Assembly (NCBI GenBank): GCA_027061805.1
Contig: JAMOWA010000008.1
Coordinates: 86 to 64,085 of the forward strand
DNA length: 64,000 nucleotides
Source of the DNA: Thermoanaerobaculia bacterium
GTDB lineage: Bacteria; Acidobacteriota; Thermoanaerobaculia; Thermoanaerobaculales; Sulfomarinibacteraceae
Direction: 5' to 3'
Shown: positions 18,641 through 45,232 of the stretch, one piece after another
Layout of the letters: each line of letters begins with the position of its first letter
Position numbering within the stretch: position 1 is the first letter of the stretch
The notes under the pieces: model-generated
Seen by the model: only the letters and a program-made list of their open reading frames with translations
What the model was told of the DNA's origin: nothing
Databases searched by the model: none
Translations under genes and position numbers: made by a program

Positions 18641-18663
18641 GGAGCCGGACCGGGTGGTGCGAC

Positions 18664-18921
18664 ATGAAGCGATTTGCCAACAACGGCCGTTCCGGTGTTC
18701 CGACCTGCTCCTCGTGCCGGCACTTCTGTGACGATCCCCAGCGGTTGGAGAAGATGTTTGCGGGCATTCTGGTTCTCTCCTCCACCTACGGCTCCACGAG
18801 GGGAAGGGCCGGGGTCTGCGGCATCCACCAGAGGTTCCACGATCCCGAGCCGGCATGTTCCGATTTCGTACCACGAACCGGGTGTTTCCAGGAGGTGGCT
18901 CAGGATGTTACTGATCAGTAA
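18664..18921 (+). CDS. Small Cys-rich protein of unknown function (85 aa, six Cys)
   Basis: MKRFANNGRSGVPTCSSCRHFCDDPQRLEKMF...LSSTYGSTRGRAGVCGIHQRFHDPEPACSDF. First ORF after P1. In frame with the gloB remnant but unrelated to it. Confidence 0.5.
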   Translation: MKRFANNGRSGVPTCSSCRHFCDDPQRLEKMFAGILVLSSTYGSTRGRAGVCGIHQRFHDPEPACSDFVPRTGCFQEVAQDVTDQ

Positions 18922-18922
18922 C
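18907..18922. promoter_or_regulatory. GTTAC-N6-GTAAC palindrome (copy 1)
   Basis: GTTACtgatcaGTAAC. Overlaps the stop codon of the small Cys-rich ORF, 53 bp upstream of ATG 18975. Confidence 0.6.
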
Positions 18923-18974
18923 GTTGGGAACCCCGTGAAACCGTCCTTGTGCCCCGATTCACGAGGAGGACGCC

Positions 18975-21107
18975 ATGGCTGAACCCGCCGTGCGGCCGGT
19001 TTCGCCCGTCGAGTGGCACCCCCTGGGTCTTCCGGAGGGGCGGGAGCGCCCCGTGGAACGCCTCGCCCGGGAGATCCTCGAACGGTGCCGGGGTGAGGGT
19101 CCGGCCAACTGTGTCGCGCGCTGTCCGCTCCACGTGGACGCTCGGGGCTACGTCCAGCTGACGGCACAGGGGAAGTACCGGGAGGCCCTGCAGCTGGTCC
19201 GGGAGAGGCTGCCCTTTCCCGGCGTGCTGGGCTATGTCTGCGCCCATCCCTGTGAGGCCCACTGCAAGCGGATCGACGAGGACGAGCCTGTCAGGATCCG
19301 TGACATCAAGCGGTTTCTCGCCGAATGGGAGCCGGGCGAGCCGCAGCACCTCGTGGACTGCGAGCCCGACCGGGGACGCAGCGTGGCCGTGGTGGGGGCC
19401 GGTCCCGCCGGGCTCCTGGCGGCCCACGACCTCCGCCGGAGGGGATATGCGGTCACGGTGTTCGAACGGACCGACCGGATCGGTGGATGCCTCGTGTGGA
19501 AGATTCCGCCCTACCGTCTCCCCAGGAAGGTCGTGGAGCGGGACCTCTCGGTGATCGCGGCCCTGGGGATCCCCGTGGAGACGGGGGTCGAGGTGGGGGC
19601 AGACGTGGCGCTGGAGGAGCTCAGGGAACGCTTCGATGCGGTGCTCCTCCTGGTGGGGCGGGAGGGAGCCGTCCGGATCCTGTCCCACACCGACCCCGGA
19701 CTGGTGACGCCCGAGGGCCGTCTCCGCGTGGATCCCCTCACCTGTTCCACGGCGCTGGAGGGCGTGTTCGCGGGCGGTGACGCGGTGAGTGGCCCCGGGA
19801 CCGTGATCTCCGCGCTGGCGCTGGGCCGCAGGGCGGCCGGGTCCGCCATGAGGTTCCTCGAGGGGCGAGACCTCCAGGAGGATCGCGAGCCTCTGCTGCC
19901 CCCGAGACTGCTCTGGACGCTGGAGATCCCCGAGAGCGAACGGAAGCGCCGCCAGCGGACTCCGGTGATGCTCACGCCACCGCCACCTCCGCTCGACGAG
20001 GCTGCGGCGCGGGAGGAGGCGGAACGGTGCCTGGACTGCACCTGTGGCCTCTGCGTCCGGGACTGCGAGTTCCTCGAGGACCACTGCGACTCGCCGAAGG
20101 ACATCGCTCGGCGGGTGCTGGAGGATCCCGACGATCCCGGGGTGCTCAGGACCACCTATTCGTGCAACATCTGCTCGCTGTGCGCCGCGGTGTGTCCCGA
20201 GGGACTCGACACCGGGGCGCTCCTGCTGGAGGCCCGCCGGGAGGCCGTCCGCAGGGGCACGGGCCCCCTCCCGGTGCACAAGGGGATCGTGAGCTACTGG
20301 AAGGCCGGTGTGGGGAACACCTTCACCACCGTCATGCCGGAGCCCGGCCGCAGGACCAGCCGGCGGCTCTTCTTCACCGGGTGCGCGCTCCCCGCGGTCT
20401 CGCCGGCGAACACGCTCCGGATCTACGACGAGCTCAGGAAGCACTACCCGGGGACCGGCGTGATGATGTACTGCTGCGGGGCTCCGGTGGAGCTCCTGGG
20501 CATGGATGCGGAGTTCGACCGGACCCGCGAGGACATCCTCAGGCTTGCGGACCAGGTGGGTGCCGACGAGCTGGTGGCGGCATGCCCCGACTGTGCCCAC
20601 ACGCTGAAGGAGGCGGTCCCGGAGCTCACCATCACCACGGCATGGGAGCTGCTGGCTGGAAGGTGGCAGCCGCCGCGGCGCGAGGGTTCTCCGGCCGTCG
20701 CCATCCACGACTCGTGCAAGGCGCGGCACGCCCCGGAGATCACCAGCTCCGTCCGGAGGATCCTCCAGGACGGTGGCGCGGCCATCGAGGAGATCGAGTA
20801 CAACGGCGAGCTCGCGCGGTGCTGCGGCTTCGGCGGCATGATCTACCCGGTGGATCCCGAGCTCTCCCGGAGGGTCAGCCGCCGGAGGGCCGGGGAGACT
20901 CCCCTGCCCCAGGTGACCTACTGTGCGGGCTGCCGGATGGCCATCGCCGGGGTCGGGAAGCCGGCGGTCCACATCCTGGACTTCCTGATGAGCGATGACT
21001 GGGAGAAGGCGGCGGCGAAGAAGGCGCCGGGCTCCGTGACGCGGTATGCCAACCGTCTGAGAACCAAGTGGGCGTTCAGGCGGCTGAAGCCCCTCGCGAC
21101 GGACTGA
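18975..21107 (+). CDS. Fusion protein: GltD-like FAD oxidoreductase lacking the second (NAD(P)H) Rossmann domain + HdrC-like 2x[4Fe-4S] + HdrB/HdrD-like CCG domains
   Basis: N-terminus CVARCP..VCAHPCEAHC and VAVVGAGPAGL...GVFAGGDA. Centre CLDCTCGLCVRDC and CNICSLCAAVCP. C-terminus has CCG motifs MMYCCGAP and LARCCGFGG. Confidence 0.8.
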   Translation: MAEPAVRPVSPVEWHPLGLPEGRERPVERLAREILERCRGEGPANCVARCPLHVDARGYVQLTAQGKYREALQLVRERLPFPGVLGYVCAHPCEAHCKRIDEDEPVRIRDIKRFLAEWEPGEPQHLVDCEPDRGRSVAVVGAGPAGLLAAHDLRRRGYAVTVFERTDRIGGCLVWKIPPYRLPRKVVERDLSVIAALGIPVETGVEVGADVALEELRERFDAVLLLVGREGAVRILSHTDPGLVTPEGRLRVDPLTCSTALEGVFAGGDAVSGPGTVISALALGRRAAGSAMRFLEGRDLQEDREPLLPPRLLWTLEIPESERKRRQRTPVMLTPPPPPLDEAAAREEAERCLDCTCGLCVRDCEFLEDHCDSPKDIARRVLEDPDDPGVLRTTYSCNICSLCAAVCPEGLDTGALLLEARREAVRRGTGPLPVHKGIVSYWKAGVGNTFTTVMPEPGRRTSRRLFFTGCALPAVSPANTLRIYDELRKHYPGTGVMMYCCGAPVELLGMDAEFDRTREDILRLADQVGADELVAACPDCAHTLKEAVPELTITTAWELLAGRWQPPRREGSPAVAIHDSCKARHAPEITSSVRRILQDGGAAIEEIEYNGELARCCGFGGMIYPVDPELSRRVSRRRAGETPLPQVTYCAGCRMAIAGVGKPAVHILDFLMSDDWEKAAAKKAPGSVTRYANRLRTKWAFRRLKPLATD

Positions 21108-21118
21108 GGGAGGCGGGA

Positions 21119-23566: not shown

Positions 23567-24174
23567 GCGAGCAGGTTCTGGAGCGGGCTCCGGCCCCGGC
23601 GGATCTCCCGGGCTTCTTCGGGGCCCACGAGCCGCTGCCCCGTGAGGATGTGGATCCGGCCATCTGGCCCTTCATCGACCGGTGGGTCGCGACCCATCGG
23701 GGTGGTCGGGAGCGCCTCATCCCGCTGCTTCACGCCATCCAGGAGCAGCTGGGATACCTGCCGTTCCCCGTCCAGGAGTACGTGGCGGAGAAGCTGGGCC
23801 TCTCGCCCATCCAGGTCTACGGGGTGGTGAGCTTCTACCACTTCTTCACCACCACGCCGCGGGGGAGGTACCAGCTCAAGGTGTGCATGGGAACGGCCTG
23901 CTTCGTCCGGCATGCCCAGAGCATCGTGGAGACCCTGAACGACGTGCTGGGGATCGGTGTGGGAGAGGTGACGGAGGACCGGATGTTCAGCCTGGAACAG
24001 GTGCGGTGCATCGGGGCCTGCGGCCTGGCACCCGCCATGATGGTCAACGACGAGGTGCACGGCAACCTGACGAGGAACGACGTGAGGCGGCTGGTCCGCC
24101 GCCTCCGGGCGAAGGAGCGCAAGGCGGCTGCGAAGGCTGCCGGGGAGGCCGACGGTGGCACGGACGAGCAGTGA
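23563..24174 (+). CDS. nuoE: NuoE/HydC-like thioredoxin-fold [2Fe-2S] subunit
   Basis: 203 aa. YQLKVCMGTACFVRH ... VRCIGACGLAPAMMVND, typical of the NuoE/HoxE/HydC family. Family-level call only. Confidence 0.85.
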   Translation: MSEQVLERAPAPADLPGFFGAHEPLPREDVDPAIWPFIDRWVATHRGGRERLIPLLHAIQEQLGYLPFPVQEYVAEKLGLSPIQVYGVVSFYHFFTTTPRGRYQLKVCMGTACFVRHAQSIVETLNDVLGIGVGEVTEDRMFSLEQVRCIGACGLAPAMMVNDEVHGNLTRNDVRRLVRRLRAKERKAAAKAAGEADGGTDEQ

Positions 24175-26065: not shown

Positions 26066-26074
26066 GGGGGGACC

Positions 26075-26455
26075 ATGGCGACCAAGACGATCCTGCTGGT
26101 GGACGACGACGAGATCTTCGTGGAGGCCGTCTCGGCGGTTCTCGAGGGACGGTACCGCGTGATCACGGCGGCAAACGGGACCGAGGGCCTGGCGAGGGTG
26201 CGGGAGGACCGTCCCGACCTCATCGTGCTCGACGTGATGATGGATCACCTCTCCGAGGGGTTCGACGTGGCGCGGAGCCTCAGGAACGACCCGGACCTGG
26301 CCGGGATTCCCATCATCATGCTGACGGGCGTGGACCAGGTGTACAACGTCCGCATGGAGGTGGACGAGTCCTGGGTGCCGTGCGAGAAGTATCTGGAGAA
26401 GCCCATCGCCCCCGATGAGCTCCTGGCGCACGTGGCCGAGCTGATCGGGGAGTGA
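26075..26455 (+). CDS. Stand-alone CheY-like receiver protein (no output domain)
   Basis: 126 aa. ILLVDDDE ... LIVLDVMM ... KP motifs. Confidence 0.85.
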   Translation: MATKTILLVDDDEIFVEAVSAVLEGRYRVITAANGTEGLARVREDRPDLIVLDVMMDHLSEGFDVARSLRNDPDLAGIPIIMLTGVDQVYNVRMEVDESWVPCEKYLEKPIAPDELLAHVAELIGE

Positions 26456-27903
26456 CAGTGGCCGCGGACGACCACTTCGCCTACATCTTTGCGGCCGAGC
26501 TCCACGAGCGCCTCCGCTGGTTCATCACGCTGCGCTGGATGGCCGTGGCCGGTCTGGCGGTGGGCTCGCTGGTCGGTCCCCGGATGGGTCTGGAGTCGGT
26601 CTGGCCGAGCCTCTTCGTGGTGGCCCTCTTCGTGGCGGCCTACAACCTGTACTTCAGCTGGCGCCTGGGGGGGCGGTCGGGCCAGGAGCGTCCGCTCGGG
26701 GGCCTGAGGCACTGCGCCATCCGGCAGATGGTGATGGACCTGGCGGCGCTGATCGTGGGCGTCCACTTCACCGGGGGCCTCCAGAGCCCCCTGCTGCCGT
26801 TCTTCGCCTTCCACATGGCCATCGGGACCATCGTGCTGTCCACGCGCCTCATGTACCTCATCGCGGGGTGCACCTCGCTGGCCATGCTCCTGCTCTACAT
26901 TCTCGAAGAGAACGGGGTCCTCCGGTACCATCCGCTCGATCCCCTCCACGGCATCTGCAGCCGGGCCTGCTACCTCAACATGGTCAGCTTCGTCATGGCG
27001 CTCTTCGGGATCGTCTATCTCACGGATTCGGTCACCGGCCGGTTCAAGGAGCGGAACATCAAGCTCCACGAGGCCAAGGCGGCGCTCCAGGAACGGACCG
27101 AGGAGCTCCAGCAGCTGCTGGACGAGATCGCGGAGGTGGAGGAGCGGAAGTCCCACTACATGAGGATCTCCGCCCACCAGCTGCGTTCCCCCCTGGGTAC
27201 GGTGAAGACCTCCCTCATGGTCCTGACCCAGGGTTACGTGGACCCGGGATCGGAGCGGGGCCGCAAGCTCCTGGAGGGTGCCATCGAGCGCGTGGACGGG
27301 CTCCTGCGGATCGTCAACGATCTGCTGGAGCTCGCCAAGATCCGGGAGGGGCGGAACCGGGCACCGTGGGCACGCGGCGTCAACCTGAACCAGCTCGTGG
27401 CGGACATCTTCGACGCGGTATCGCCCCTGGCCGACGAGCGGGAAATCCGGCTGGTCCCCCTGGTGGAGGGGGTGGCCGTCCTGGACTGGGGGATCCCTCC
27501 CGACCTGGTCTTCGCCCTCGAGAACCTGGTCCAGAACGCCATCAAGTACTCGCTCCCCGGCGGACAGGTGACGGTGGGGCTCCGGGTGACCGGGGGCGGG
27601 GAGGCCGTGCTCACCGTGGAGGACCAGGGAATTGGCATTCCCGAAGAGTTCGTGGAGCAGGTGATGGACGAGTTCGTCCGGGCCCCCAATGCGAAGGCCC
27701 ACGCCGCAGAGGGGACCGGACTCGGGCTCTCCATCGTGCGGGAGGTGGTGGAGGCCCACGGGGGGCGGATCACCGTCCGGAGCGTGGAAGGCGAGGGCAG
27801 CACCTTCACTGTTACGCTGCCGTTGCATCACCGTCCCCCGGAGGTGGAAGCCTTGTTACACGACGGTAACGATGGCGGTTACCAGACACCTACGGGGTCG
27901 TGA
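26452..27903 (+). CDS. Membrane sensor histidine kinase (multi-TM N-terminus, HisKA + HATPase_c)
   Basis: H-box ISAHQLRSPLG. N/G boxes NLVQNAIKYS, DQGIGIP and GTGLGLSIV. About 5-6 TM helices at the N-terminus. GTGA overlap with the receiver gene. Confidence 0.85.
   Translation: MTVAADDHFAYIFAAELHERLRWFITLRWMAVAGLAVGSLVGPRMGLESVWPSLFVVALFVAAYNLYFSWRLGGRSGQERPLGGLRHCAIRQMVMDLAALIVGVHFTGGLQSPLLPFFAFHMAIGTIVLSTRLMYLIAGCTSLAMLLLYILEENGVLRYHPLDPLHGICSRACYLNMVSFVMALFGIVYLTDSVTGRFKERNIKLHEAKAALQERTEELQQLLDEIAEVEERKSHYMRISAHQLRSPLGTVKTSLMVLTQGYVDPGSERGRKLLEGAIERVDGLLRIVNDLLELAKIREGRNRAPWARGVNLNQLVADIFDAVSPLADEREIRLVPLVEGVAVLDWGIPPDLVFALENLVQNAIKYSLPGGQVTVGLRVTGGGEAVLTVEDQGIGIPEEFVEQVMDEFVRAPNAKAHAAEGTGLGLSIVREVVEAHGGRITVRSVEGEGSTFTVTLPLHHRPPEVEALLHDGNDGGYQTPTGS
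27855..27882. promoter_or_regulatory. GTTAC-N6-GTAAC palindrome (copy 2) plus an extra GTTAC half-site
   Basis: GTTACacgacgGTAAC (27855-27870), then gatggcgGTTAC (to 27882). Inside the 3' end of the kinase gene, about 106 bp upstream of P2. Confidence 0.6.
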
Positions 27904-27975
27904 GGCGCCCGCCAGCATTCACTCCTGGATACTCCTAATCCATTGAGGATCAGTTGGTTGCCGCTGCGAATGGAG

Positions 27976-27991
27976 TGGTATGTCCCTTGCA
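27976..27991 (+). promoter_or_regulatory. Candidate sigma54 promoter P2
   Basis: TGGTATGtcccTTGCA, canonical GG-N10-GC spacing, 62 bp upstream of the rhodanese ATG. Confidence 0.65.
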
Positions 27992-28052
27992 ACCGGGTGG
28001 AACAAGCGGAGGGTTCCTCCGCCGTGTGGGAAACCAGCAAAGGAGGACGGAC

Positions 28053-29033
28053 ATGAAGCATGGATCGAGTTCGAGGTTGGTGACGGTCGTGGCACTGCTG
28101 CTCGTGGTCGGGCTTGCGATGCCGGCCCTGGCGGGCAACGGCTACAAGGGGTTTGCCAGGGGCGAGGCCCTGATCACGGTCAAGGAGCTGAAGTCACTCA
28201 TGGACGCCAAGGATCCGAAGCTCGTGATCCTGGCGGTGGCGAAGACCACGGACTACCGGCTGGGCCACATCCCCGGGGCGTTCCAGATCTGGCGGCCGGA
28301 CTACGAGCCCAAGGAGGGGGTGGAGTTCCCCTACGAGGGCATGGCCCTGGACCGCGAGGACTTCCAGGCCTTCGTGCGGAAGTTCGGGATCGACAACGAC
28401 TCCAAGGTCGTGATCTACGACCACAAGTACGACGCCACGCGCGTGTGGTGGATGTTCTACCTCTACGGGAAGACCGACTGCCGGGTCCTCGACGGTGGCT
28501 ACCAGGCCTGGAAGAAGGCGGGCTACGACACCGACATCCTGGCGCCGGATCTCCCCAAGGAGCCCGGCACCTTCACGGCCTCCGCCGCTCTCCCGGGCTG
28601 GTCCGTCAGCGTCACCACCATCTGGCGCTGCAAGACCTCGGACGACTACCAGCTCTGGGACACCCGGGGCACGAAGGAGTGGACGGGCGAGAAGCTCAAG
28701 AAGGGGGCCTATGCCAAGGGCCGTATCCCCTGGGCCAAGCACTGCAACTGGCCCAACTTCAAGAAGCCCGTCACCGAGGGCGGCAAGGCCACCGAGTTCA
28801 AGACCGCCGCGGAGATCCAGAAGGTCATCGAGAAGTTCGGCATGGACAAGAACAAGCACCAGGTCTTCTACTGCCAGTCGGGCGTGCGGACCACCACCGA
28901 GATGTTCGCTCTCTACCTGATGGGCTGGGATCCGGCCCAGCTCCACAACTACGACGGGTCCTGGATCGAGTGGAGCTACTACCACAAGAACCTGCCGGAC
29001 TCCGGTGCGATCCTGTGCGAGGCCTGCAAGTGA
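28053..29033 (+). CDS. Secreted tandem-rhodanese sulfurtransferase (thiosulfate/3-mercaptopyruvate sulfurtransferase family) with C-terminal CEAC tail
   Basis: ATG 28053 after AGGAGG. Signal peptide MKHGSSSRLVTVVALLLVVGLAMPALA. Two rhodanese repeats. Active-site loop YCQSGVRT. Ends ..AILCEACK. Confidence 0.85.
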   Translation: MKHGSSSRLVTVVALLLVVGLAMPALAGNGYKGFARGEALITVKELKSLMDAKDPKLVILAVAKTTDYRLGHIPGAFQIWRPDYEPKEGVEFPYEGMALDREDFQAFVRKFGIDNDSKVVIYDHKYDATRVWWMFYLYGKTDCRVLDGGYQAWKKAGYDTDILAPDLPKEPGTFTASAALPGWSVSVTTIWRCKTSDDYQLWDTRGTKEWTGEKLKKGAYAKGRIPWAKHCNWPNFKKPVTEGGKATEFKTAAEIQKVIEKFGMDKNKHQVFYCQSGVRTTTEMFALYLMGWDPAQLHNYDGSWIEWSYYHKNLPDSGAILCEACK

Positions 29034-29123
29034 CCACATGATCTCCGATCCCCCGGGGCCCGGCCGGGTCCCGGGGGGCCGTGCCTCCCGGCCGCCGGGG
29101 GGCGGATTTCGAGGGGGCGAAGC

Positions 29124-29882: not shown

Positions 29883-29910
29883 GCCGGCGAACAACGTGGA
29901 GAGGCCATCC

Positions 29911-29942
29911 GGGGGGACGCCGAGGCGTCCCCCCCTTGTTGT
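29911..29942 (+). terminator. Rho-independent terminator after the rhodanese/TVP38 unit
   Basis: 10-bp perfect stem ggggggacgc/gcgtcccccc, loop cgag, followed by cTTGTTGT. Confidence 0.7.
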
Positions 29943-29976
29943 CCGGGTCGCGCCGGTGGTCCTGGGATCATGCCGG

Positions 29977-29992
29977 GTTACGATCCGGTAAC
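29977..29992. promoter_or_regulatory. GTTAC-N6-GTAAC palindrome (copy 3)
   Basis: GTTACgatccgGTAAC, within a direct repeat ACGATCCGGT x2, about 129 bp upstream of P3. Confidence 0.6.
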
Positions 29993-30120
29993 GATCCGGT
30001 GGACGGGTGGTGTTGCCGGCGTGGCCTCGCCGACGTGTGAACGTCGCTCAACCCCCTGACATCACGCGGGATCCGCCACCGGGTCGATCTCGTGATACGG
30101 GAACCGGTCCGGTGTCGTGA

Positions 30121-30136
30121 CGGCACGAATCTTGCT
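30121..30136 (+). promoter_or_regulatory. Candidate sigma54 promoter P3
   Basis: CGGCACGaatcTTGCT, 54 bp upstream of ATG 30190. Confidence 0.65.
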
Positions 30137-30189
30137 CAAGTGTTCTGTGGAGCACTGGAACAAGACCCGTATCGGGCGAGGGAGGTGCG

Positions 30190-32702: not shown

Positions 32703-32715
32703 GAAGGGGGTTGCC

Positions 32716-33558
32716 ATGGGCCTGGCCGACCTGTTGAAGCGACGTCGTGGGGGGGAGCGCCCCACGAGCCGGCGGGCGCCGGAGAGGGTGCGGGGTGAGG
32801 AGGAGCTCGTCCGGATCGCCATGGAGGACCCCGAGCTGGAGCACCGCCTCCTCGCGGTGGACCGCCTGGGGAGCCAGGACGCCCTCGAGCGGGTGGCGCT
32901 CGACGGTTCCCACCTGGACGCGAGGCTCAAGGCGGTCCGCAGGATCACGGACCAGCGGGTGCTGGCCCGCATCATGCGGGAGCGGAAGCAGCCGGACCTG
33001 ATGATGGCGTGCTTCGAGGGAATCCGCGATCCCGCGGTGCTGGAGGAGGTGGCCAGGGACACCCGGCAGAGCCTCACCGCGCGGAGGATCGCCATCGACA
33101 TGTTCGCCGACCGGGACGCGCTCCTGGACATCCTCAGGTCGGTGAACGCTCCGGTGCTCAGGAGGGCGGCGGTGGAGAGGATCGGGGACCAGGACCTCCG
33201 GGCGCAGCTGGAGGCCGAGCTCGCGGCGCACCGGCCCGACGAGAACCTGGACAGGATCCTCGAGACCTACGACGCGGACGTGCTCGTGGAGTTCCTGGGG
33301 GCCTTCCGGGACTCGCCCTCCGCGGTCCGTGCGCTGGGACGGCTCGCCGGGCGTGGCGGGGAGGCCGGCGAGCACGCGGCGGTGATCCTCACCCGCCTCC
33401 TCAAGCACGCCCGTGCGGAGATCCGCAGGATCGCACTCGAGGGGCTCGCCGACACGGAGGCGTTCCCCGCGGACGTGGTGGAAGAGATGGCCGGGTCCGA
33501 TCCGGACCCCGAGGTGAGACGGCTCGCGCAGGCGGCCCTGGAGAAGGCCGACGCCTGA
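32716..33558 (+). CDS. HEAT-repeat protein
   Basis: 280 aa of repeated about 30-aa helical units (..RLLAVDRLG.., ..RRAAVERIGD.., ..RRIALEGLAD.., DPEVRRLAQAAL). Confidence 0.65.
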   Translation: MGLADLLKRRRGGERPTSRRAPERVRGEEELVRIAMEDPELEHRLLAVDRLGSQDALERVALDGSHLDARLKAVRRITDQRVLARIMRERKQPDLMMACFEGIRDPAVLEEVARDTRQSLTARRIAIDMFADRDALLDILRSVNAPVLRRAAVERIGDQDLRAQLEAELAAHRPDENLDRILETYDADVLVEFLGAFRDSPSAVRALGRLAGRGGEAGEHAAVILTRLLKHARAEIRRIALEGLADTEAFPADVVEEMAGSDPDPEVRRLAQAALEKADA

Positions 33559-33580
33559 GCGCAGGGAACAGGGAGGCACC

Positions 33581-33970
33581 ATGGGCGCCACGATTCTGGT
33601 TGTGGACGACGAGCAGGATGTCAGGACCTATCTGAGGACGCTCCTGACCAAACAGGGGTACGAGGTGGTCGCGGCCGCCGACGGGGAGGAGGGCCTGGAG
33701 GTGGCAAGAGCCCGGCGCCCGGACCTCGTCTTCCTGGACATCATGATGCCCAGGAAGACCGGGATCATGCTCTACCGGCGCCTGAAGAAGGACCCCGATC
33801 TCGGAGGGGTGCCCGTGGTGATCCTCACGGGGCTCTCCCAGTACCGGACCTTCTTCGCCCAGGACTTCGAGGAGGTTCCCCGGCCGGAGGCGTTCGTGGA
33901 GAAGCCGCCCAACCGGGAGGAGCTGCTCCGGCTGGTGGAGGAGCTGGTCTCCACCCCGGCCGGCGGCTGA
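33581..33970 (+). CDS. Stand-alone CheY-like receiver protein (no output domain)
   Basis: 129 aa. ILVVDDEQD ... LVFLDIMMP ... KP motifs. Confidence 0.85.
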   Translation: MGATILVVDDEQDVRTYLRTLLTKQGYEVVAAADGEEGLEVARARRPDLVFLDIMMPRKTGIMLYRRLKKDPDLGGVPVVILTGLSQYRTFFAQDFEEVPRPEAFVEKPPNREELLRLVEELVSTPAGG

Positions 33971-33991
33971 TCCGGCTCCGAGGGGGGAGGC

Positions 33992-35122
33992 ATGGACAGG
34001 GCCGGGGACGACGGGACCACCGTCCGGTGGAACGGACCCACGGGGGGTGAGCTGAGGGTCCAGGCCGACCGGCTCTTCGACCTGGTGCCGAGCGCCATCT
34101 CGATCCAGGACAGGAACTACAGGATCCGGAAGGTCAACGCCGCCTTCCGGCGGATGTTCGGCGAGGGCGTGGGCGAGTACTGCTACTCGGCCTACAAGGG
34201 GAGGTCCAGGGTGTGCCTGGACTGCCCCATGGCGCGCACCTTCGCCGACGGCGGCGTGCACTCCTCGGAGGAGGTGGTCCAGACCGCCGCCGGGGAGGTG
34301 CTCCACGTGACCGTCCAGACCTCGCCGATCCTGGGGCCGGACGGGAGCGTGGTGGGGGGGATGGAGGTGATGACCGACCTCTCGGGGTCCACGGCGGTGC
34401 GGCAGGAGCTGGTCCTCCTGGGTCAGGCCATGGCCGGCATGGCGCACTACATCAAGAACCTGCTCACCGGGCTCGAGGGCGGGGTCTACGTGGTGGAGGA
34501 GGCCCTCGAGGACGGTGACGAGGGGCTTCTCCAGGAGGGATGGGAGATGGTGCGCCGGAATGTGGAGCGCGTCGCCCGCCTTTCCAGGGACCAGCTGTAC
34601 TGTTCGCGCGACCGGATGCCGGAGATCCAGCTCGTGGAGGTGAACCGGCTGGTCTGCCAGTCCGCCGAGCTCTACCGGGCCCGGGCGGAGCGGGAGGGCA
34701 TCGGGCTCCACGTGGAGCTGGACGAACGGATCGGGGCGGGGTGGCTGGACCCGGAGGGCTTCGACAACCTTCTCACCAACCTGCTGTCCAACGCCCTGGA
34801 TGCCTGCCGCTTCGACACCTCGAAGGAGCGTCACTGGGTCTCGGTGAAGACCCTCCTCGAGAGTGGCGGCCAGCTCCACCTGGAGGTGGCGGACAACGGC
34901 CAGGGGATCCCCGAGAAGCTCTGCGGCGCCGTCTTCTCCGAGATGTTCACCACGAAGGGGGGCGGAGGGACCGGCCTGGGGCTCCTGGTGGTCTACAGGG
35001 TGGTCTGTGCCCACAATGGCCGGATCACCGTGATGTCCGAGGATGGCGTGGGGACGGTGTTCACCGTGATCCTCCCCCTGGCGCCCCCGGGCGAGCGGTC
35101 GATGAATGTTACCGTGGAGTAA
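33992..35122 (+). CDS. Cytoplasmic PAS-domain sensor histidine kinase
   Basis: N-terminal PAS-like region (IQDRNYRIRKVNAAF..). H-box GMAHYIKNLL. ATPase boxes NLLSNALDA, DNGQGIP and GTGLGLLVV. Confidence 0.8.
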   Translation: MDRAGDDGTTVRWNGPTGGELRVQADRLFDLVPSAISIQDRNYRIRKVNAAFRRMFGEGVGEYCYSAYKGRSRVCLDCPMARTFADGGVHSSEEVVQTAAGEVLHVTVQTSPILGPDGSVVGGMEVMTDLSGSTAVRQELVLLGQAMAGMAHYIKNLLTGLEGGVYVVEEALEDGDEGLLQEGWEMVRRNVERVARLSRDQLYCSRDRMPEIQLVEVNRLVCQSAELYRARAEREGIGLHVELDERIGAGWLDPEGFDNLLTNLLSNALDACRFDTSKERHWVSVKTLLESGGQLHLEVADNGQGIPEKLCGAVFSEMFTTKGGGGTGLGLLVVYRVVCAHNGRITVMSEDGVGTVFTVILPLAPPGERSMNVTVE

Positions 35123-35123
35123 C
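35108..35123. promoter_or_regulatory. GTTAC-N6-GTAAC palindrome (copy 4)
   Basis: GTTACcgtggaGTAAC, overlapping the kinase stop codon, about 82 bp upstream of P4. Followed by an AT-rich stretch with overlapping palindromes caatcgattg/ttgaaattcaa (35147-35164). Confidence 0.6.
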
Positions 35124-35204
35124 GCTCGATCGTTGTATTGTCTGCGCAATCGATTGAAATTCAATGGTTTTCAGGGCTTGGGCGGGGTCCGTGATCCGTG
35201 GAGA

Positions 35205-35220
35205 TGGCACGGACATTGCT
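35205..35220 (+). promoter_or_regulatory. Candidate sigma54 promoter P4
   Basis: TGGCACGgacaTTGCT, an exact match to the TGGCACG-N4-TTGCW consensus, 44 bp upstream of ATG 35264. Confidence 0.75.
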
Positions 35221-35263
35221 GATTTCTTCACCGGCGGTCCCCTGTGGGACCGGGGGAGGGAGC

Positions 35264-36697
35264 ATGGAGGCGGAGATCCGTACCTTGCCGGAGGTTTCCC
35301 AGGATGTGCTGGCGTCTCTTCGGCCGCCGAGCCTGACACCGGAGAAGATCCAGGAGCGCCTCAGCTACATCATCGAGAAGGACCGCGTGGTGGGGGATCT
35401 GCCCCGGCGGTTCCTCGAGGCGTTCGCGGCGGTGCTCAAGCACACCAACTACCGCCAGGTGATCGACAACTATGCCAGGATACCGGCCCGCTGCGCCAAC
35501 TGCGCCTGTGCGTGCCAGATCTACCAGCAGACCCACGATCCGAAGGACGTGCCGTGCTACCGGTCGAACCTCCTCCTGGAGGTGTACCGGCGCCACTTCA
35601 CGCTCCGTGGGATCGTGGAGGGTCACCTGAGCGGGGCGCCGTTCCTGACGGACGACCTCATCCTGGAGATGGCCGAGACCTACTACCACTGTACGGCCTG
35701 CCGCCGGTGCACTCTCGAGTGCCCCCTGGGGATCGATCACGGCCTGGTCACCCACCTCGCCCGGTACGTGCTCTCGGAGATCGGGCTGGTTCCACGGGCC
35801 CTCGTGATCTCCACCAGGGAGCAGCTGGAGGGCCAGACCCGGAACACCTCGGCGATCCCGTGGCCGGCCATCGCCGACACCCTGGAGTTCCTGGAGGAGG
35901 AGATCAAGGACGACAAGGGTGTGGACGTGAAGTTCCCGGTGGACCAGCCGGGCCGGGAGTTCATCTTCTTCGCCCCCGTGTCCGACTACCTCATGGAGGC
36001 CGAGACGCTCATGGGGATCGCCGTGGTGTTCTACGCCACGGGGGCGATGGACTCCTGGACCATCTCCACCGAGTTCCTCGACGGCATCAACTACGGGCTC
36101 TTCTACAGCGACTGGATCCTGGAACGGTGCCTCAGGGAGGAGCTCGAGCAGCTCAGGAGACTCGAGGCCAGGAAGATCCTCATCGGGGAGTGCGGCCACG
36201 CCTCGCGGTCCGCCAAGGCGTTCATGCGGACCTTCGGCGGAGGGGAGAAGGCACCTCCGGTGGTGAACATCATGGAGTACACCTACCGGGCGCTCAAGGA
36301 GGGGAAGCTCAGGCTCGATCCCGACGTGATCAGCGAGCGGGTCACCTACCACGACCCCTGCAACCTGGCCCGGACGGGCTGGATCATCGACGAACCCCGG
36401 GAGATCCTGCGGTCCTTCTGCAGGGACTACGTGGAGATGGAGCCGCGGGGACAGTGGAACCTGTGCTGCGGCGGTGGTGGCGGGACCGTCTCGGTGGACG
36501 AGATCCGCCCCTACCGGACGGGGGTGACAGGCGTGAAGAAGGCGGAGCAGATCCGGGCCACGGGGGCCCACTACGTGGTGGCACCCTGTGCGAACTGCAA
36601 GAAGCAGCTCCGCGAGGTGTGCGAGGACAACGGCCTGGACGACGTGGAGGTGGTGGGCCTCCACGACCTCATCTACAAGGCCATCGTCCTGGAATGA
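35264..36697 (+). CDS. DsrK/HmcF-like (HdrD-type) Fe-S/CCG-domain subunit, module 2
   Basis: ATG 35264 (RBS GGGAGGGAG); the track ATG 35198 lies upstream of the predicted promoter elements (-24 element starts at 35205). CANCACACQ and CTACRRCTLECP motifs. CCG motif NLCCGGGGG. Confidence 0.8.
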   Translation: MEAEIRTLPEVSQDVLASLRPPSLTPEKIQERLSYIIEKDRVVGDLPRRFLEAFAAVLKHTNYRQVIDNYARIPARCANCACACQIYQQTHDPKDVPCYRSNLLLEVYRRHFTLRGIVEGHLSGAPFLTDDLILEMAETYYHCTACRRCTLECPLGIDHGLVTHLARYVLSEIGLVPRALVISTREQLEGQTRNTSAIPWPAIADTLEFLEEEIKDDKGVDVKFPVDQPGREFIFFAPVSDYLMEAETLMGIAVVFYATGAMDSWTISTEFLDGINYGLFYSDWILERCLREELEQLRRLEARKILIGECGHASRSAKAFMRTFGGGEKAPPVVNIMEYTYRALKEGKLRLDPDVISERVTYHDPCNLARTGWIIDEPREILRSFCRDYVEMEPRGQWNLCCGGGGGTVSVDEIRPYRTGVTGVKKAEQIRATGAHYVVAPCANCKKQLREVCEDNGLDDVEVVGLHDLIYKAIVLE

Positions 36698-36707
36698 GGA
36701 GGGCGTG

Positions 36708-37418
36708 ATGCTTGAGAGCTGGATCGAGCTGGCCCGCGGCCCCCTGCTGAGACTGGCCCTGCTGGCCATGGCGGTGGGACTGCTGCGTCAGGTGCTGCTC
36801 CAGGTCTGGGAGATCTCCTGGGCCTTCCACAGGGCGGGGGATCAGGTGGTGCCGTGGAGGGTGGCCCTCAGGAGAAACCTGGAGTGGCTGCTTCCCTGGC
36901 GCTATCTCCAGAGGAAGGAGCGGCGTGCCTACAACTTCACCTCCTTCCTGTTTCACGTCGGGGTGATCGCCGTTCCCCTGTTCCTGGCCGGGCACGTGGC
37001 CATCTGGAACCAGGAGCTGGGCCTGTCCTGGTGGACGCTGCCTCCCGCGGTGGCCGACTGGCTGACGGCGATCACCGTGGTGGCGGCGCTGGGGCTCCTG
37101 CTGGGGCGGATGGTGAACTCCGCCTCCAGGGTCATCAGCAAGTTCCAGGACTGGGCGCTTCCCGTGCTGTGCATCCTGCCGTTCGTGACGGGGTTCTGGG
37201 TGGCCCACCCCCTCTGGAGCCCCTTCGACGCGCAGGTGGTCTACCTGGTCCACCTGCTGTCCGCCGAGCTGCTCCTGATCCTGGTGCCGTTCTCCAAGCT
37301 CGTCCACATGGTCCTGTTCTGGGTGAGCCAGACCTCCAGCGAGCTCGGGTGGAGGTTCCCACCCGGCTCCGGTGAGCGGGTCAGGGTCACGCTCGGGAAG
37401 GAGACGGAGGGGATATGA
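36708..37418 (+). CDS. DsrM/HmcE-like (NarI-type) membrane heme-b subunit, module 2
   Basis: ATG 36708 (RBS GAGGAGGG). 236 aa, about 5 TM, with His in helices (FLFHVG, AGHVAIW, YLVHLL, KLVHMV). Confidence 0.7.
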   Translation: MLESWIELARGPLLRLALLAMAVGLLRQVLLQVWEISWAFHRAGDQVVPWRVALRRNLEWLLPWRYLQRKERRAYNFTSFLFHVGVIAVPLFLAGHVAIWNQELGLSWWTLPPAVADWLTAITVVAALGLLLGRMVNSASRVISKFQDWALPVLCILPFVTGFWVAHPLWSPFDAQVVYLVHLLSAELLLILVPFSKLVHMVLFWVSQTSSELGWRFPPGSGERVRVTLGKETEGI

Positions 37419-38245
37419 TCACGGATCCCTGCATCCTCAACGATGTCACCCGGTGTATCGGCTGCGAGGAGTGTGTGGCGGCGTGCAAGCGGATCAACGG
37501 ACTTCCGGAAGAGGACCCGCCGCCCAGGGTCGGCCAGTCGAAGGACGGCCTGTCCTCCACGAGGTGGACGAGCATCCTCCGGAGGACCGGGGGGGTCAAC
37601 GTTCGCAAGCAGTGCCGCCACTGCCTGGAGCCCGCCTGTGTCTCCGTGTGCCCCGTGGGCGCCCTGAAGAAGACGCCCGAGGGCCCGGTGGTCTACGACA
37701 AGAGCGTCTGCATGGGGTGCCGCTACTGCATGATGGGCTGCCCGTACGGCATCCCGCACTACGAGTGGAACACCGTCAATCCCTCCATCCGGAAGTGCAT
37801 CCTCTGCCACGAGAAGCTGAAGTCCGGGGAGATCGACCGTCCCGCGTGCGTGACGGCCTGCCCGAAGGAGGCCACGGTCTTCGGAAGCCGAGACGAGATG
37901 CTGGCCGAGGCCCGCCGCCGACTCGAGGCGGAGCCGGGCACGTACCTCCAGCACATCTGGGGGGAGCACGAGGTGGGCGGCACCTCGGTGCTGTACATCT
38001 CCCACGTGGACCTCGGTTTCCTGGCCTGGCAGGATCCGAAGTTCCTGGGGGTGGAACCCCTGCCCGAGCGGACGTGGAGCGCCCTGAAGAAGGTCCCCTT
38101 CGAGTTCGTGGGCATGGCCACCTTCATGACCGCGGCCTGGTGGATCATCGACCGCAGGATGCGGCTCCAGGGAGAGGAAGGTGCCGGTGGGGACCGTGAC
38201 CACGACGAGCCCGGCGGCTCCGCAGACGAGGGAGGCGAACAATGA
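37415..38245 (+). CDS. DsrO/HybA/FdnH-like 4x[4Fe-4S] ferredoxin subunit with C-terminal TM anchor and no N-terminal signal peptide
   Basis: The first cluster motif CIGCEECVAAC begins at residue 14. Further motifs CRHCLEPACVSVCP, CMGCRYCMMGCP and CILCHEK..ACVTACP. C-terminal helix FEFVGMATFMTAAWWII. ATGA overlaps on both sides. Confidence 0.8.
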   Translation: MITDPCILNDVTRCIGCEECVAACKRINGLPEEDPPPRVGQSKDGLSSTRWTSILRRTGGVNVRKQCRHCLEPACVSVCPVGALKKTPEGPVVYDKSVCMGCRYCMMGCPYGIPHYEWNTVNPSIRKCILCHEKLKSGEIDRPACVTACPKEATVFGSRDEMLAEARRRLEAEPGTYLQHIWGEHEVGGTSVLYISHVDLGFLAWQDPKFLGVEPLPERTWSALKKVPFEFVGMATFMTAAWWIIDRRMRLQGEEGAGGDRDHDEPGGSADEGGEQ

Positions 38246-40083
38246 CCCGGCGGGTCCAGATCACCAAGGGGATCCTGTGGTTCATCTCGGGGCTGGCGGC
38301 GGCCGTGACCATCGTCCGGTTCACCCGGGGCCTCGGTACCACCACCGCGCTCTCGGACACCACGCCGTGGGGACTCTGGGTCGGTTTCGACGTGATGGGC
38401 GGCGTGGCCCTGGCGGCGGGCGGATTCGTCATCGGCGCCATCGCCCACGTCTTTCAGAGGGAGCGCTACCACCACGCGGTGCGGCCGGCGATCCTCACCG
38501 CGCTGCTGGGCTATGCTGCGGTGGCGGTGGGGCTGATCTACGATCTCGGTCTCCCGTGGAACATCTGGCATCCGCTGATCTTCTGGAACCCCCACTCGCC
38601 GCTCTTCGAGGTGGCCTGGTGCGTGATGACCTACCTGGGGATCCTGTTCCTGGAGTTCCTGCCGGTGTTCCTGGAGAGGACCCGTTTCCAGGCGCTGTAC
38701 CGGACCCTGCTGCGCCTCCAGCTGCCGCTGATCATCCTGGGAATCTCGGTATCCACGCTCCACCAGTCGAGCCTGGGGACCCTCCTGCTCATCATGCCCT
38801 TCCGGCTGCACCCGCTCTGGTACACGCCCCACCTGCCGGAGCTGTTCTTCGTCTCCGCCATCTGCCTGGGGCTGGTGATGGTGATCTTCGAGTCCTCGGT
38901 GACGGCCTGGCTGTACGAGCGGGAGCCCCACACCGACATGCTCGCGGGGCTCTCCCGCTTTGCGGCGGGTGCCCTGGCCTTCTACCTGGCCTTCCGGTTC
39001 TTCGACCTGTGGCACCACGGCAAGCTGGGCCTGGCCTTCGAGAACACCTTCGAGGTGCGCCTCTTCTGGTTCGAGATCGCCATCAGCGCGGTGATCCCGC
39101 TGGTCCTGTTCCTGATTCCCCGCGTTCGCAGGAGCCACACGGGGGTGTTCATCGCGGCAGCCCTCGGCGTGATGGGCTTCCTGCTCAACCGCATCGACGC
39201 CTCGGGTCTGGCCCAGGTGTGGGCCACCGGCGCCGACTACTTCCCCGAGTGGACCGAGTTCGTGGTCAGCTTCGGGATCGTGTCGTTCTTCGCACTGATC
39301 TACCTCTTCATCCAGGAACACTTCCCGGTGGAGAAGGAGATCGTGGACGAGGAGGAGAGGTGGCTGCAACGCCAGCTCTTCGTGCTGCCCCGTTTCGACA
39401 GGGGCTCCCAGGTCTGGCTCGGTGATGCGACCTTCGCCTCCCGCAGGGTGTACTCGGCTCTCTTCGTGGTGGCGCTGGTGGTGGGGCTGGCGCTCACGCC
39501 GTGGCAGCCGCTCGTGAAGGCCTCGCCGGTGCAGCGGGCCCGGGGCGGCGAGATGCTCCGTGTGGGCTACCCCCTCGGCACCGTCATGTTCCCCCACGGG
39601 GAGCACATCACGCGGCTGGGGAAGGAGGCCTGCGGGACCTGCCACCACCTCCACAAGCCCGGCGACGTGGGGACCCCGTGCTCCGAGTGCCACGCGGACC
39701 TCTACCTGGACACCACGATCTTCGATCACGTGCGGCACGTGGCGGTCCTGGAGGGCAACGCCTCCTGTGCGAAGTGCCACCCGGAGGGGCAACCCAAGGT
39801 CCGTGCCACGGCCAGGAAGTGCTCCTCGTGCCACGAGAAGGACATGATGGCCGCCAACACCGTGGCGACCCGGTTCGAGAGCCTCGCGGCCCCGGGCCTG
39901 CGGCGGGCGGCCCACGGGATCTGCATCGAGTGCCACCGGAGGGAGGCGGCCAACCCCGAGTGGAAGAAGCCGGACCTCTTCCGCTGCGCCACCTGCCACA
40001 AGACCCCCGTGCCCCACGTGCAGGAGCTCCGGCTCCTCCGGGCGGAGGGCGGGGAGACCGCTCCGGTCGCAGCGGGTTCGTGA
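38242..40083 (+). CDS. Fusion: DsrP/HmcC-like NrfD-family membrane subunit (about 10 TM) + linker TM + C-terminal hexaheme cytochrome c domain
   Basis: 613 aa. NrfD/PsrC-like N-terminal 400 aa. Extra TM VYSALFVVALVVGLALTPW. Six CxxCH motifs: CGTCH, CSECH, CAKCH, CSSCH, CIECH and CATCH. Confidence 0.8.
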   Translation: MTRRVQITKGILWFISGLAAAVTIVRFTRGLGTTTALSDTTPWGLWVGFDVMGGVALAAGGFVIGAIAHVFQRERYHHAVRPAILTALLGYAAVAVGLIYDLGLPWNIWHPLIFWNPHSPLFEVAWCVMTYLGILFLEFLPVFLERTRFQALYRTLLRLQLPLIILGISVSTLHQSSLGTLLLIMPFRLHPLWYTPHLPELFFVSAICLGLVMVIFESSVTAWLYEREPHTDMLAGLSRFAAGALAFYLAFRFFDLWHHGKLGLAFENTFEVRLFWFEIAISAVIPLVLFLIPRVRRSHTGVFIAAALGVMGFLLNRIDASGLAQVWATGADYFPEWTEFVVSFGIVSFFALIYLFIQEHFPVEKEIVDEEERWLQRQLFVLPRFDRGSQVWLGDATFASRRVYSALFVVALVVGLALTPWQPLVKASPVQRARGGEMLRVGYPLGTVMFPHGEHITRLGKEACGTCHHLHKPGDVGTPCSECHADLYLDTTIFDHVRHVAVLEGNASCAKCHPEGQPKVRATARKCSSCHEKDMMAANTVATRFESLAAPGLRRAAHGICIECHRREAANPEWKKPDLFRCATCHKTPVPHVQELRLLRAEGGETAPVAAGS

Positions 40084-40165
40084 CACCTCCGGTGGCTGCC
40101 GTCCCCGGGTCCGCCGGGGACGGCTCCGCGGACCCGGGGACGGTGGGGAGCCGGCCACTCCGGGT

Positions 40166-40181
40166 GTTACGTATCGGTAAC
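40166..40181. promoter_or_regulatory. GTTAC-N6-GTAAC palindrome (copy 5)
   Basis: GTTACgtatcgGTAAC, about 204 bp upstream of P5. Confidence 0.6.
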
Positions 40182-40274
40182 CATGCCGGGAGAATCGGCG
40201 TCCCGGGGCGGACCCCCGAAGCCAGAGGAGCCTGTGTCAACAACTCACCTGTTTTGAGATAGTTGGACTTCACT

Positions 40275-40290
40275 GTTCCGATCTCGTAAC
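40275..40290. promoter_or_regulatory. Degenerate copy of the palindrome (GTTCC-N6-GTAAC)
   Basis: GTTCCgatctcGTAAC, one mismatch, about 95 bp upstream of P5. Confidence 0.4.
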
Positions 40291-40384: not shown

Positions 40385-40400
40385 TGGCACATGGGTTGCA
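40385..40400 (+). promoter_or_regulatory. Candidate sigma54 promoter P5 (YeiH-like/dsrABD unit)
   Basis: TGGCACatgggTTGCA, exact TGGCAC-N5-TTGC, 50 bp upstream of ATG 40450. The track ATG 40396 lies inside the promoter. Confidence 0.75.
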
Positions 40401-42096: not shown

Positions 42097-42151
42097 GGCA
42101 CGGGGGGAAAACAGGACCTGCGGGTCTGGGGAGACAAGGAAAGGAGTTGCC

Positions 42152-43345: not shown

Positions 43346-43354
43346 GAGGTATCC

Positions 43355-44431: not shown

Positions 44432-44440
44432 GAGGCGATC

Positions 44441-44689: not shown

Positions 44690-44698
44690 TGTCGAACC

Positions 44699-44733: not shown

Positions 44734-44751
44734 CCTACCAGGAGGCACAGC

Positions 44752-45195: not shown

Positions 45196-45232
45196 CCGTT
45201 CCGGCAGGGAGTGGGACGGGGGAGGCGTTCAG

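Follow-up and report, generated by a model that had tools for sequence, protein, structure and literature searches.

GTTAC-N6-GTAAC palindromes as probable upstream activating sequences of sigma-54 promoters in an acidobacterial dsr island

The stretch of DNA analyzed here (the window; 64,000 nucleotides of an uncultured Thermoanaerobaculia bacterium, contig JAMOWA010000008.1 of assembly GCA_027061805.1, positions 86 to 64,085) carries an island of dsr genes for sulfite respiration in which the palindrome GTTAC-N6-GTAAC recurs between operons. The palindromes are very probably upstream activating sequences (UAS), sites from which a bacterial enhancer-binding protein (bEBP) would activate sigma-54-dependent promoters. 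Members of the Acidobacteriota with dsr genes occur in abundance in marine sediment, peat, and permafrost. Neither sigma-54 nor a regulator of these genes is mentioned in the principal publications on acidobacterial dsr clusters. The window also matches a metagenome contig in ENA (k141_683705, 104,760 bp); the coordinate offset changes by 18 bp from one tested end to the other, the window extends past the end of that contig, and its right-hand part matches another contig of 8.9 kb (k141_5780), so that the window derives from a different and longer assembly of the same organism.

The dsr island

Genes in the island were called from third-position G+C and Pfam matches and form a co-directional set:

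18664-18921, plus strand: cysteine-rich open reading frame (ORF) of 85 amino acids (aa), from translation; conserved in two related loci, L205 and L206, with an 85-aa orthologue called at 9646-9903 of L206
18975-27903, plus strand: operon 1, encoding a GltD/Hdr fusion, NuoG/Fdh-like protein, NuoE, NuoF, REC1, and HK1 (Pfam)
26075-26455, plus strand: REC1, a receiver-only protein
26452-27903, plus strand: HK1, a PilS-like kinase
27954-29033, plus strand: rhodanese, downstream of promoter P2
29124-29882, plus strand: DedA/VTT protein, downstream of promoter P2
dsrM2K2, then 32716-33558 (HEAT protein), 33581-33970 (REC2, receiver only), and 33992-35122 (HK2, a PAS kinase), all plus strand (Pfam)
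35264-40083, plus strand: dsrK-M-O-P/J, with DsrP fused to a cytochrome
40450-49808, plus strand: yeiH-like gene, dsrA, dsrB, 82-aa ORF, orf147, dsrL, dsrN, HEAT/TPR protein genes, and dsrC

The 82-aa ORF occupies the position of dsrD and matches no family. As the original prediction had stated, no island protein contains a DNA-binding domain detectable by Pfam. Regulators encoded elsewhere in the window are a PAS-AAA-HTH_8 bEBP (62613-63959) and an OmpR-type protein (10349-11065, minus strand). There are no aio genes in the window; the genes downstream of the palindromes are dsr, hdr-like, and rhodanese genes.

Occurrence of the palindrome

The whole window was searched for GTTAC-N6-GTAAC, exactly and then with one mismatch permitted, and the counts were compared with those from 100 dinucleotide-preserving shuffles. 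Five exact copies were found, starting at 18907, 27855, 29977, 35108, and 40166, and one mismatch added only the site at 40275. The sites (none assigned to a strand) are as follows:

18907-18922: S1, GTTACTGATCAGTAAC, exact; its right half-site contains the TAA (18919-21) of the 85-aa ORF
27855-27870: S2, GTTACACGACGGTAAC, exact; inside the 3' end of the HK1 gene, with an extra GTTAC half-site at 27878-27882
29977-29992: S3, GTTACGATCCGGTAAC, exact
35108-35123: S4, GTTACCGTGGAGTAAC, exact; lies over the TAA (35120-22) of HK2
40166-40181: S5a, the distal site before yeiH/dsrA, GTTACGTATCGGTAAC, exact
40275-40290: S5b, the proximal site, GTTCCGATCTCGTAAC, one mismatch
18857-18872: weak second site, GTTCCGATTTCGTACC, two mismatches, 50 bp before S1

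The shuffles contained a mean of 0.00 exact and 0.07 one-mismatch copies, and none of the 100 attained the observed count. The window has a G+C content of 64-73%, which makes a pair of A/T-containing pentamers in register even less probable. The palindrome is confined to 18.9-40.3 kb: neither search found a copy elsewhere in the window, and there is none in the 8.8 kb to its left or in the 4 kb past the bEBP gene near its right end.

These searches bear out most of what had been predicted from the letters alone: five exact copies with the same positions and spacers, a single imperfect copy at 40275, the additional half-site at 27878, a recurrence very unlikely by chance, and no copy beyond the island. 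The prediction had also placed three copies over the stop codon of the preceding gene, which is so for only two (18907 and 35108). The site at 27855 lies within the last ~16 codons of the HK1 ORF and overlaps a stop codon solely in another frame.

Sigma-54 promoters downstream of the palindromes

Sigma-54 elements (TGGCAC-N5-TTGC, or GG-N10-GC) were located with a weighted -24/-12 scan (maximum score 19.5). The top plus-strand matches in the island start at 18624, 27976, 30121, 35205, and 40385:

18624-18639, plus strand: P1, sigma-54-like, GGGCACAGCGATTGCA, score 18.5 of 19.5; before the 85-aa ORF and the GltD/Hdr-Nuo-like operon
27976-27990, plus strand: P2, TGGTATGTCCCTTGC; before the rhodanese and DedA/VTT genes, with TGGTAC-type elements in the same place in L003 and L006
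30121-30135, plus strand: P3, CGGCACGAATCTTGC; before dsrM2K2-HEAT-REC2-HK2, with CGGCACGATACTTGC in the same place in L206
35205-35219, plus strand: P4, TGGCACGGACATTGC; before dsrK-M-O-P/J and kept in every close orthologue
40385-40399, plus strand: P5, TGGCACATGGGTTGC; before the operon that runs from the yeiH-like gene to dsrC

Four of the five operons carry a -24/-12 element downstream of a palindrome and on the same strand as the gene. Measured from the end of the palindrome to the start of the -24 element, the gap is 105 bp at P2, 128 bp at P3, 81 bp at P4, and 203 bp (distal) or 94 bp (proximal) at P5, so that the range of 82-204 bp given earlier for the exact copies upstream of P2-P5 fits the measured 81-203 bp. 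In close relatives, TGGCAC-N5-TTGC follows the proximal palindrome by 72-107 bp in every case. At the yeiH/dsrA promoters, palindrome and -24 element are 109-111 bp apart (start to start) in more than 20 independent loci; the imperfect site S5b aligns with the exact palindromes of these promoters, another site is present ~108 bp upstream of the first, and a conserved tCAAc-N3-4-TT block is found ~35-40 bp before the -24/-12 element. The P5-type -24/-12 sequence itself (TGGCACAnGGGTTGC) is nearly invariant across loci.

Sequences resembling an IHF site lie between palindrome and promoter. One of these, TTTCAATCGATTG, is found between S4 and P4 (35147-35159, minus strand) and has one mismatch to WATCAANNNNTTR. 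With up to two mismatches allowed, such sequences occur in all four spacers (8 matches in 408 bp, compared with 0.66 per kb window-wide, a count that the lower G+C content of the spacers favors). A palindrome, then a bend site, and then a -24/-12 element is the textbook layout of a bEBP-dependent promoter.

Conservation in related dsr islands

Related loci were collected by a DsrK-based search that kept one genome per species and yielded 80 loci, which were thus chosen by protein similarity and not by the motif. The nearest of these belong to metagenome-assembled genomes (MAGs) of Acidobacteriota, Thermoanaerobaculia, and Thermoanaerobaculales, with DsrK identities of 70-84%. All five intergenic positions are again occupied by sites in MAGs with 67-84% identity to the window in DsrK and 71-86% in the GltD/Hdr fusion. 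Before dsrK (the position of S4) the palindrome is exact in L002, L003, L004, L005, and L010 and has one mismatch in L006, L008, and L009. Before yeiH/dsrA it is exact in L002, L003, L004, L007, and L010 and has one mismatch in L006; L003 and L004 contain both the distal and the proximal copy, ~108 bp apart as in the window. The position before the rhodanese gene (S2) is occupied in L003 (1961) and L006 (3071), each with one mismatch, and in L206 (18959) by an exact copy, and the position before dsrM2K2 (S3) by exact copies in L002 (4763) and L206 (21204). In a second acidobacterial clade (L019-L023; DsrK identity 67%) dsrAB and dsrKMOP are divergent, and the intergenic region that they share contains one exact and two one-mismatch copies. 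The exact palindrome is absent from 58 more distant dsr loci (~1.3 Mb).

Across genomes the ten half-site bases are kept, the six-base spacers are unrelated, and the flanks cannot be aligned. Two of the checks proposed with the original prediction gave the same answer: footprinting in related dsr islands finds the palindrome at orthologous promoters with invariant half-sites and free spacers, and the association with -24/-12 promoters appears as a fixed distance to conserved elements in the window and in its relatives. Together with the confinement to the island, these results support the earlier proposal that the palindrome serves as a UAS for a bEBP.

The same comparison bears on the idea that the palindromes are RNA hairpins, acting at the 3' ends of the operons before them, as terminators or as processing sites. 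Several sites do lie at or just past the end of the upstream gene, and short hairpins could form (-5 to -12 kcal/mol including flanks). The stem is just 5 bp, though, half of it A/T, and no T-run follows, which is not the form of an intrinsic terminator; folding z-scores are weak, from +0.2 (40275) to -2.4. Orthologues show no covariation between the arms, which are invariant or differ by single changes that are not compensated (GTTCC, GTTTC, or GTCAC against GTAAC), a pattern that fits protein recognition of DNA and not RNA structure. In the clade with divergent dsrA and dsrK, moreover, the sites lie between two promoters and not after a gene. An RNA role is therefore extremely improbable.

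The regions flanking L002, L019, and L020 were inspected for regulator genes, and only antiporter, 2-oxoglutarate dehydrogenase, transporter, and channel genes were found there. A further palindrome with a sigma-54 promoter follows dsrC in L092, L121, L130, L184, L203 (21050-), and L204 (19594-). The gene after it encodes a protein of ~190 aa, which in L203 and L204 is of the RsbRD_N type. This gene is followed by a second dsrMK-like pair in L204 and by a dsrK-like gene in L092. The window has no palindrome after dsrC.

The palindrome in other sigma-54 regulons

A literal search of the literature for the motif string gave no match, and the connection to AioR was reached through metagenome loci. 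A metagenome scan with the pattern GTTACN6GTAAC-N(70-100)-TGGCAYN5TTGC returned at least 118 loci, among which the following first genes were found:

yeiH, dsrA, or dsrK: at least 21 loci, by similarity to the window proteins
TAT-signal Rieske protein (arsenite oxidase small subunit, aioB probe): at least 15 loci, one of which passes TIGR02694 (186 bits; cutoff 96)
NrfH: 7 among the matches listed, one of which passes TIGR03153
DsrO/ArrB-like Fe-S protein: 5 among the matches listed (DsrO model NF045797, 220.5 bits with a cutoff of 200; ArrB, 180 bits)

The aio and nrf loci encode REC-AAA+-helix-turn-helix (HTH) regulators with the helix LGISRK(N/T/S)LWEKMK (the LGISRKNLWEKMK type). That aioBA and nrfH were also recovered points to a larger group of respiratory sigma-54 regulons that share one palindrome.

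As a bEBP site the palindrome has already been described, since it is identical to the published binding motif of AioR. That motif, GT[TC][AC][CG]-N-[GCT][GTA]AAC, was established by electrophoretic mobility shift assays on aioBA and mcp and by a DNase I footprint on the mcp promoter, and was also predicted at the sigma-54 promoters of aioBA (PMC5335332). Two such palindromes 100-200 nt upstream of aioB had been proposed as sigma-54 UAS (PMC3834237). All five exact sites of the window fit the AioR motif at half-site positions 1-5 and 12-16, and the published A-rich center is not kept. Like the AioR sites of Agrobacterium, Herminiimonas, and Rhizobium NT-26, those described here lie ~100-200 nt upstream of the gene, before a -24/-12 element, and often in two copies. 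They differ in their targets (dsr, hdr-like, and rhodanese genes instead of aioBA, with no aioXSR genes in the window), in their host (Acidobacteriota instead of Pseudomonadota), and in their spacers, which are GC-rich instead of A-rich. What is new is thus the use of the palindrome in dsr islands of Acidobacteriota and not the palindrome itself.

A second known system uses related subsites. CbrB of Pseudomonas recognizes TGTTAC/GTAACA subsites at crcZ, crcY, and PP2810 in a relaxed F1/R1/R2 layout that lacks a strict consensus (PMC6296734). The identical hexamer half-sites, an NtrC-family bEBP, and an IHF site and sigma-54 promoter downstream are common to both systems; the subsites of CbrB are looser, whereas the island has a strict 5-N6-5 dyad. 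CbrB subsites are also further apart, with a consensus spacing of N14 (about two helical turns).

A 5-N6-5 dyad would also suit many HTH dimers, and its geometry is that of the CRP/FNR operator TGTGA-N6-TCACA. The sites might accordingly be sigma-54-independent operators of a conventional dimeric factor, for instance of the CRP/FNR type or a repressor, and the site at 18907 is in transcribed sequence and could be used by a roadblock repressor. This is very unlikely. What is found at a fixed distance (~70-130 bp) from the sites are conserved -24/-12 elements and not -35/-10 hexamers, and the same palindrome is a proven bEBP site (PMC5335332). No gene of the CRP/FNR or repressor type is linked to the palindrome in the ~200 loci inspected, whereas bEBP genes are. 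A CRP/FNR- or HcpR-type operator was rejected on the -24/-12 spacing and the AioR literature; the half-sites also differ from TGTGA-N6-TCACA and TTGAT-N4-ATCAA, and the sites lie ~100-230 bp upstream of sigma-54 elements. Operators of the CRP/FNR type are centered near -41.5 or -61.5 of a sigma-70 promoter.

The nrfH loci (L109, L111, L161, L173, L180, L186, and L195) have the same palindrome and a sigma-54 promoter upstream of the gene. Downstream of nrfH, L109 and L111 also encode a PilS-like kinase and a REC-AAA-HTH regulator whose helix is of the AioR type. No description of a palindrome-nrfH regulon was found in the literature.

Candidate activators

In nine dsr loci (L124, L126, L153, L158, L167, L174, L178, L203, and L204), which represent sister islands of Thermoanaerobaculales, a bEBP gene lies directly upstream of the yeiH-dsrAB palindrome and ends ~75-150 bp before it. 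Loci of sufficient length show the order dsrMKJOP, REC, HEAT, REC, kinase (minus strand), bEBP, palindrome, and yeiH-dsrAB...dsrC, so that the accessory genes are those of the window plus the bEBP. In L203 and L204 the palindrome is the only conserved dyad before the yeiH-dsrAB promoter, and over 21 kb the gene strand has no other strict sigma-54 promoter; L204 has an additional minus-strand match inside the bEBP gene.

More than 120 homologues with at least 74% identity are listed for the family of this bEBP, and NCBI names one of them as from Thermoanaerobaculales. Precomputed Pfam matches assign the family PAS, sigma-54 AAA+, and HTH_8 domains. The PAS domain contains C-x8-C-x3-C in 120 of 120 listed homologues of one member (P0001), all with an acidic residue at the second position past the first cysteine, and in the proteins of L126, L153, and L158. 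None of the bEBPs reaches an NCBIfam equivalog cutoff. The cysteine arrangement is that of OrpR from Desulfovibrio vulgaris, a [4Fe-4S] PAS sensor (C52/D54/C61/C65) that binds GGGCGYRTTTTGCGCCC and controls only the two orp operons (PMC8359166). OrpR and the candidate family share the PAS-AAA+-HTH architecture, the spacing of the cysteine triad with its acidic residue, a regulator gene co-localized with its promoter (in relatives of the window), and an IHF-like site in the spacer. They differ in the site, here GTTAC-N6-GTAAC, and in the size of the regulon, here five operons, and Fe-S binding by the acidobacterial protein is a prediction. The dsr-linked bEBP also differs from AioR, in that it has a PAS-Cys sensor instead of a receiver and another recognition helix.

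As the bEBP adjoins the palindrome in relatives and carries the OrpR-type cysteine triad, an orthologue encoded elsewhere in the genome is proposed as the binder; this unlinked orthologue of the sister-island PAS-Cys bEBP is the best candidate. The original prediction had left the regulator without a name. It was right that the island encodes no protein with a DNA-binding domain, and it is superseded in that the palindrome matches the AioR motif and a bEBP adjoins it in sister islands.

Alternatively, the sites may be sigma-54 enhancers read by an AioR-like REC-AAA+-HTH protein (with a LGISRKNLWEKMK-type helix) encoded elsewhere and phosphorylated by HK1 and HK2, with the receiver-only proteins serving as connectors or as sinks for phosphate. 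Experimental evidence of binding to the palindrome exists for AioR-like regulators and for no other proteins (PMC5335332). These regulators lie near it in two independent regulons, aioBA and nrfH, with a PilS-like kinase in the operon at L109, L111, L122, and L128, and the two kinases of the island have no DNA-binding partner. Yet no AioR-like gene was seen beside a dsr-context palindrome, either in the genome loci or in at least 21 loci from metagenomes, the PAS-Cys type is the sole bEBP found repeatedly beside dsr palindromes, and the window has no AioR-like regulator. An AioR-like binder is for these reasons rather unlikely, though it is the main alternative to the PAS-Cys bEBP.

A class-1 bEBP from Thermoanaerobaculales (P0010) was considered as a member of a MAG with a window-type island and was rejected, since it comes from a 2-kb contig fragment of a MAG other than those of the window-type loci.

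The site at 18907 and promoter P1

Site S1 differs from the others in that it lies downstream of a sigma-54-like promoter, P1. The original prediction had put it about 270 bp past P1, with the GltD/Hdr gene starting 53 bp further on; the measured distances are ~283 bp from P1 and 53 bp to the ATG at 18975. Two loci with GltD/Hdr orthologues, L205 and L206, were found by protein look-up and have the same module, in the order sigma-54-like promoter, 85-aa ORF, and palindrome over the stop codon of the ORF. The orthologous sites are exact in L205 (GTTACCAGGAAGTAAC) and have one mismatch in L206 (GTTACGAATCGGTGAC), the counterparts of P1 are AGGCACACCGATTGCA and GGGCATACCAATTGCA, respectively, and the distance between S1 and P1 is 281-283 bp in all three. 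No UAS upstream of P1 is conserved at two mismatches or fewer. S1 is predicted to act as a downstream enhancer for P1.

Flagellar sigma-54 promoters of Caulobacter have downstream ftr enhancers for FlbD. The likeness to FlbD and ftr is that of a bEBP site downstream of the sigma-54 promoter that it would serve; the protein, the motif, and the regulon are different, and S1 is ~282 bp past its presumed promoter, where a small ORF ends.

A hidden promoter at 19013, where a TGGCAC lies 90 bp from S1, was rejected: its -12 region is GGGT, it is not conserved, and the conserved MAEPA start of the GltD/Hdr fusion, which is kept in orthologues, lies upstream of it. The weak second site (GTTCCGATTTCGTACC) has an identical sequence in L205, a conservation that may reflect the protein because the site sits in coding sequence.

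The 85-aa ORF (CSSCRHFCDD...C...C...C) has no Pfam family, and in three lineages it is preceded by a sigma-54-like promoter and followed by the GltD/Hdr-Nuo-like operon. The frame that runs into it (18406-18663) is limited to the N-terminal ~75 residues of a protein with the metallo-beta-lactamase fold (LLTHHHADHIVGAG), and the counterpart in L205 (8790-9599) is an intact 269-aa Lactamase_B/HAGH_C gene. This part of the window seems to be a deletion remnant that stops just before P1.

Proposed mechanism and regulon

If the palindromes are bEBP-binding UAS, activation would follow the usual course for sigma-54 promoters. A dimeric Fis-type HTH module would bind both half-sites, whose centers are 11 bp apart and would thus be on the same face of the helix. 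An active oligomer would form from the AAA+ domains and be carried to sigma-54 polymerase at TGGCAC-N5-TTGC by an IHF-like bend within the spacer of ~70-130 bp, and the promoter would be opened by ATP hydrolysis.

Since the five operons have a common site, they are proposed to form one regulon, which would comprise the GltD/Hdr-Nuo-like operon, the rhodanese-DedA operon, dsrM2K2-HEAT-REC-HK, dsrKMOP(J), and yeiH-dsrAB...dsrC. The candidate orthologue would switch this regulon on under reducing conditions, and dsrAB and dsrMKJOP would be tied to a second dsrMK pair, to rhodanese and DedA, and to an Hdr/Nuo-like electron-input module; one enhancer motif common to these operons argues that their genes work together. 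If the PAS-Cys bEBP is the activator, dsr expression would follow redox state or anoxia. The proposal names a testable family of activators with a probable Fe-S sensor, which would explain how sulfite respiration is switched on under anoxia in facultative organisms, and the motif and promoter together are specific enough to find members of the regulon in metagenomes.

The full model combines several such steps: the whole dsr regulon would be under one unlinked OrpR-like Fe-S PAS bEBP that lacks a receiver and reads the palindrome of AioR, the enhancer of the first operon would lie ~282 bp downstream of the promoter, within transcribed sequence, and the receiver-only proteins, the HEAT protein, and the two kinases would modulate activation by protein contact. 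In this joint form the model is possible and should be taken as tentative.

Several observations weigh against the UAS interpretation or against the candidate activator. No sigma-54 promoter lies downstream of the site at 18907, and the downstream-enhancer role predicted there would be unusual. P1 and P3 (GGGCAC and CGGCAC) and P2 (TGGTAT) depart from the -24/-12 consensus. The candidate activator is not encoded in the 64-kb window or its ~13 kb of extensions, and its presence in this genome is thus an assumption. Its recognition helix, LGIHPSTLFRKI, differs from the LGISRKNLWEKMK of the AioR-like proteins that occur at the same palindrome (aio and nrf), which leaves two options, recognition of one palindrome by two types of HTH or a wrong candidate; the comparison of recognition helices links no single bEBP class to the palindrome. 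A 60%-identical relative of the candidate, in the Zixibacteria locus L061, is flanked by different palindromes.

Other regulators in the window and in distant dsr loci

In many of the more distant dsr loci (other Acidobacteriota, Zixibacteria, and Ignavibacteria) a bEBP gene is found just upstream of dsrK. Sigma-54 control of dsrMK-type operons therefore seems to be widespread, with enhancers that seem to be lineage specific. A sister PAS-Cys bEBP gene is divergent from dsrK in another acidobacterial clade (L011-L017 and L026), and another conserved dyad (TGCAACA...TGTCGCA) and sigma-54-like promoters lie between the two genes. Directly before dsrK these loci have a gene for a ~145-aa protein with an HTH_17 domain (MerR/excisionase-like) and a cysteine-rich tail.

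Both regulators encoded in the window were considered as binders of the palindrome and set aside. The bEBP at 62613-63959 is without the cysteine triad, faces its own promoter at 62465 (minus strand), and has no palindrome near it, which leaves it unsupported. Its gene is divergent from an operon that encodes a 135-aa ORF (61999-62406, no family match), an acyl-CoA dehydrogenase, an AMP-ligase, and two DUF2148 proteins; this operon is preceded by the sigma-54-like sequence TGGAACGCTTCTTGCT at 62465 (minus strand) and by no GTTAC palindrome. The orphan OmpR-type regulator (10349-11065, minus strand; REC and Trans_reg_C domains) has a conserved housekeeping neighborhood, with the same synteny in L205. 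It is encoded between HPPK and OmpH genes with no adjacent kinase, and its position is kept in the 86%-related MAG (L205, 580-1314). Members of the OmpR family usually bind direct repeats and are not known to activate sigma-54 promoters. A further strong sigma-54 element, TGGCACGGCTCTTGC, lies at 3982 (minus strand) before a gene for a 747-aa FecR/DUF6600 protein (~1696-3939, minus strand) and is also found in L082 (7649).

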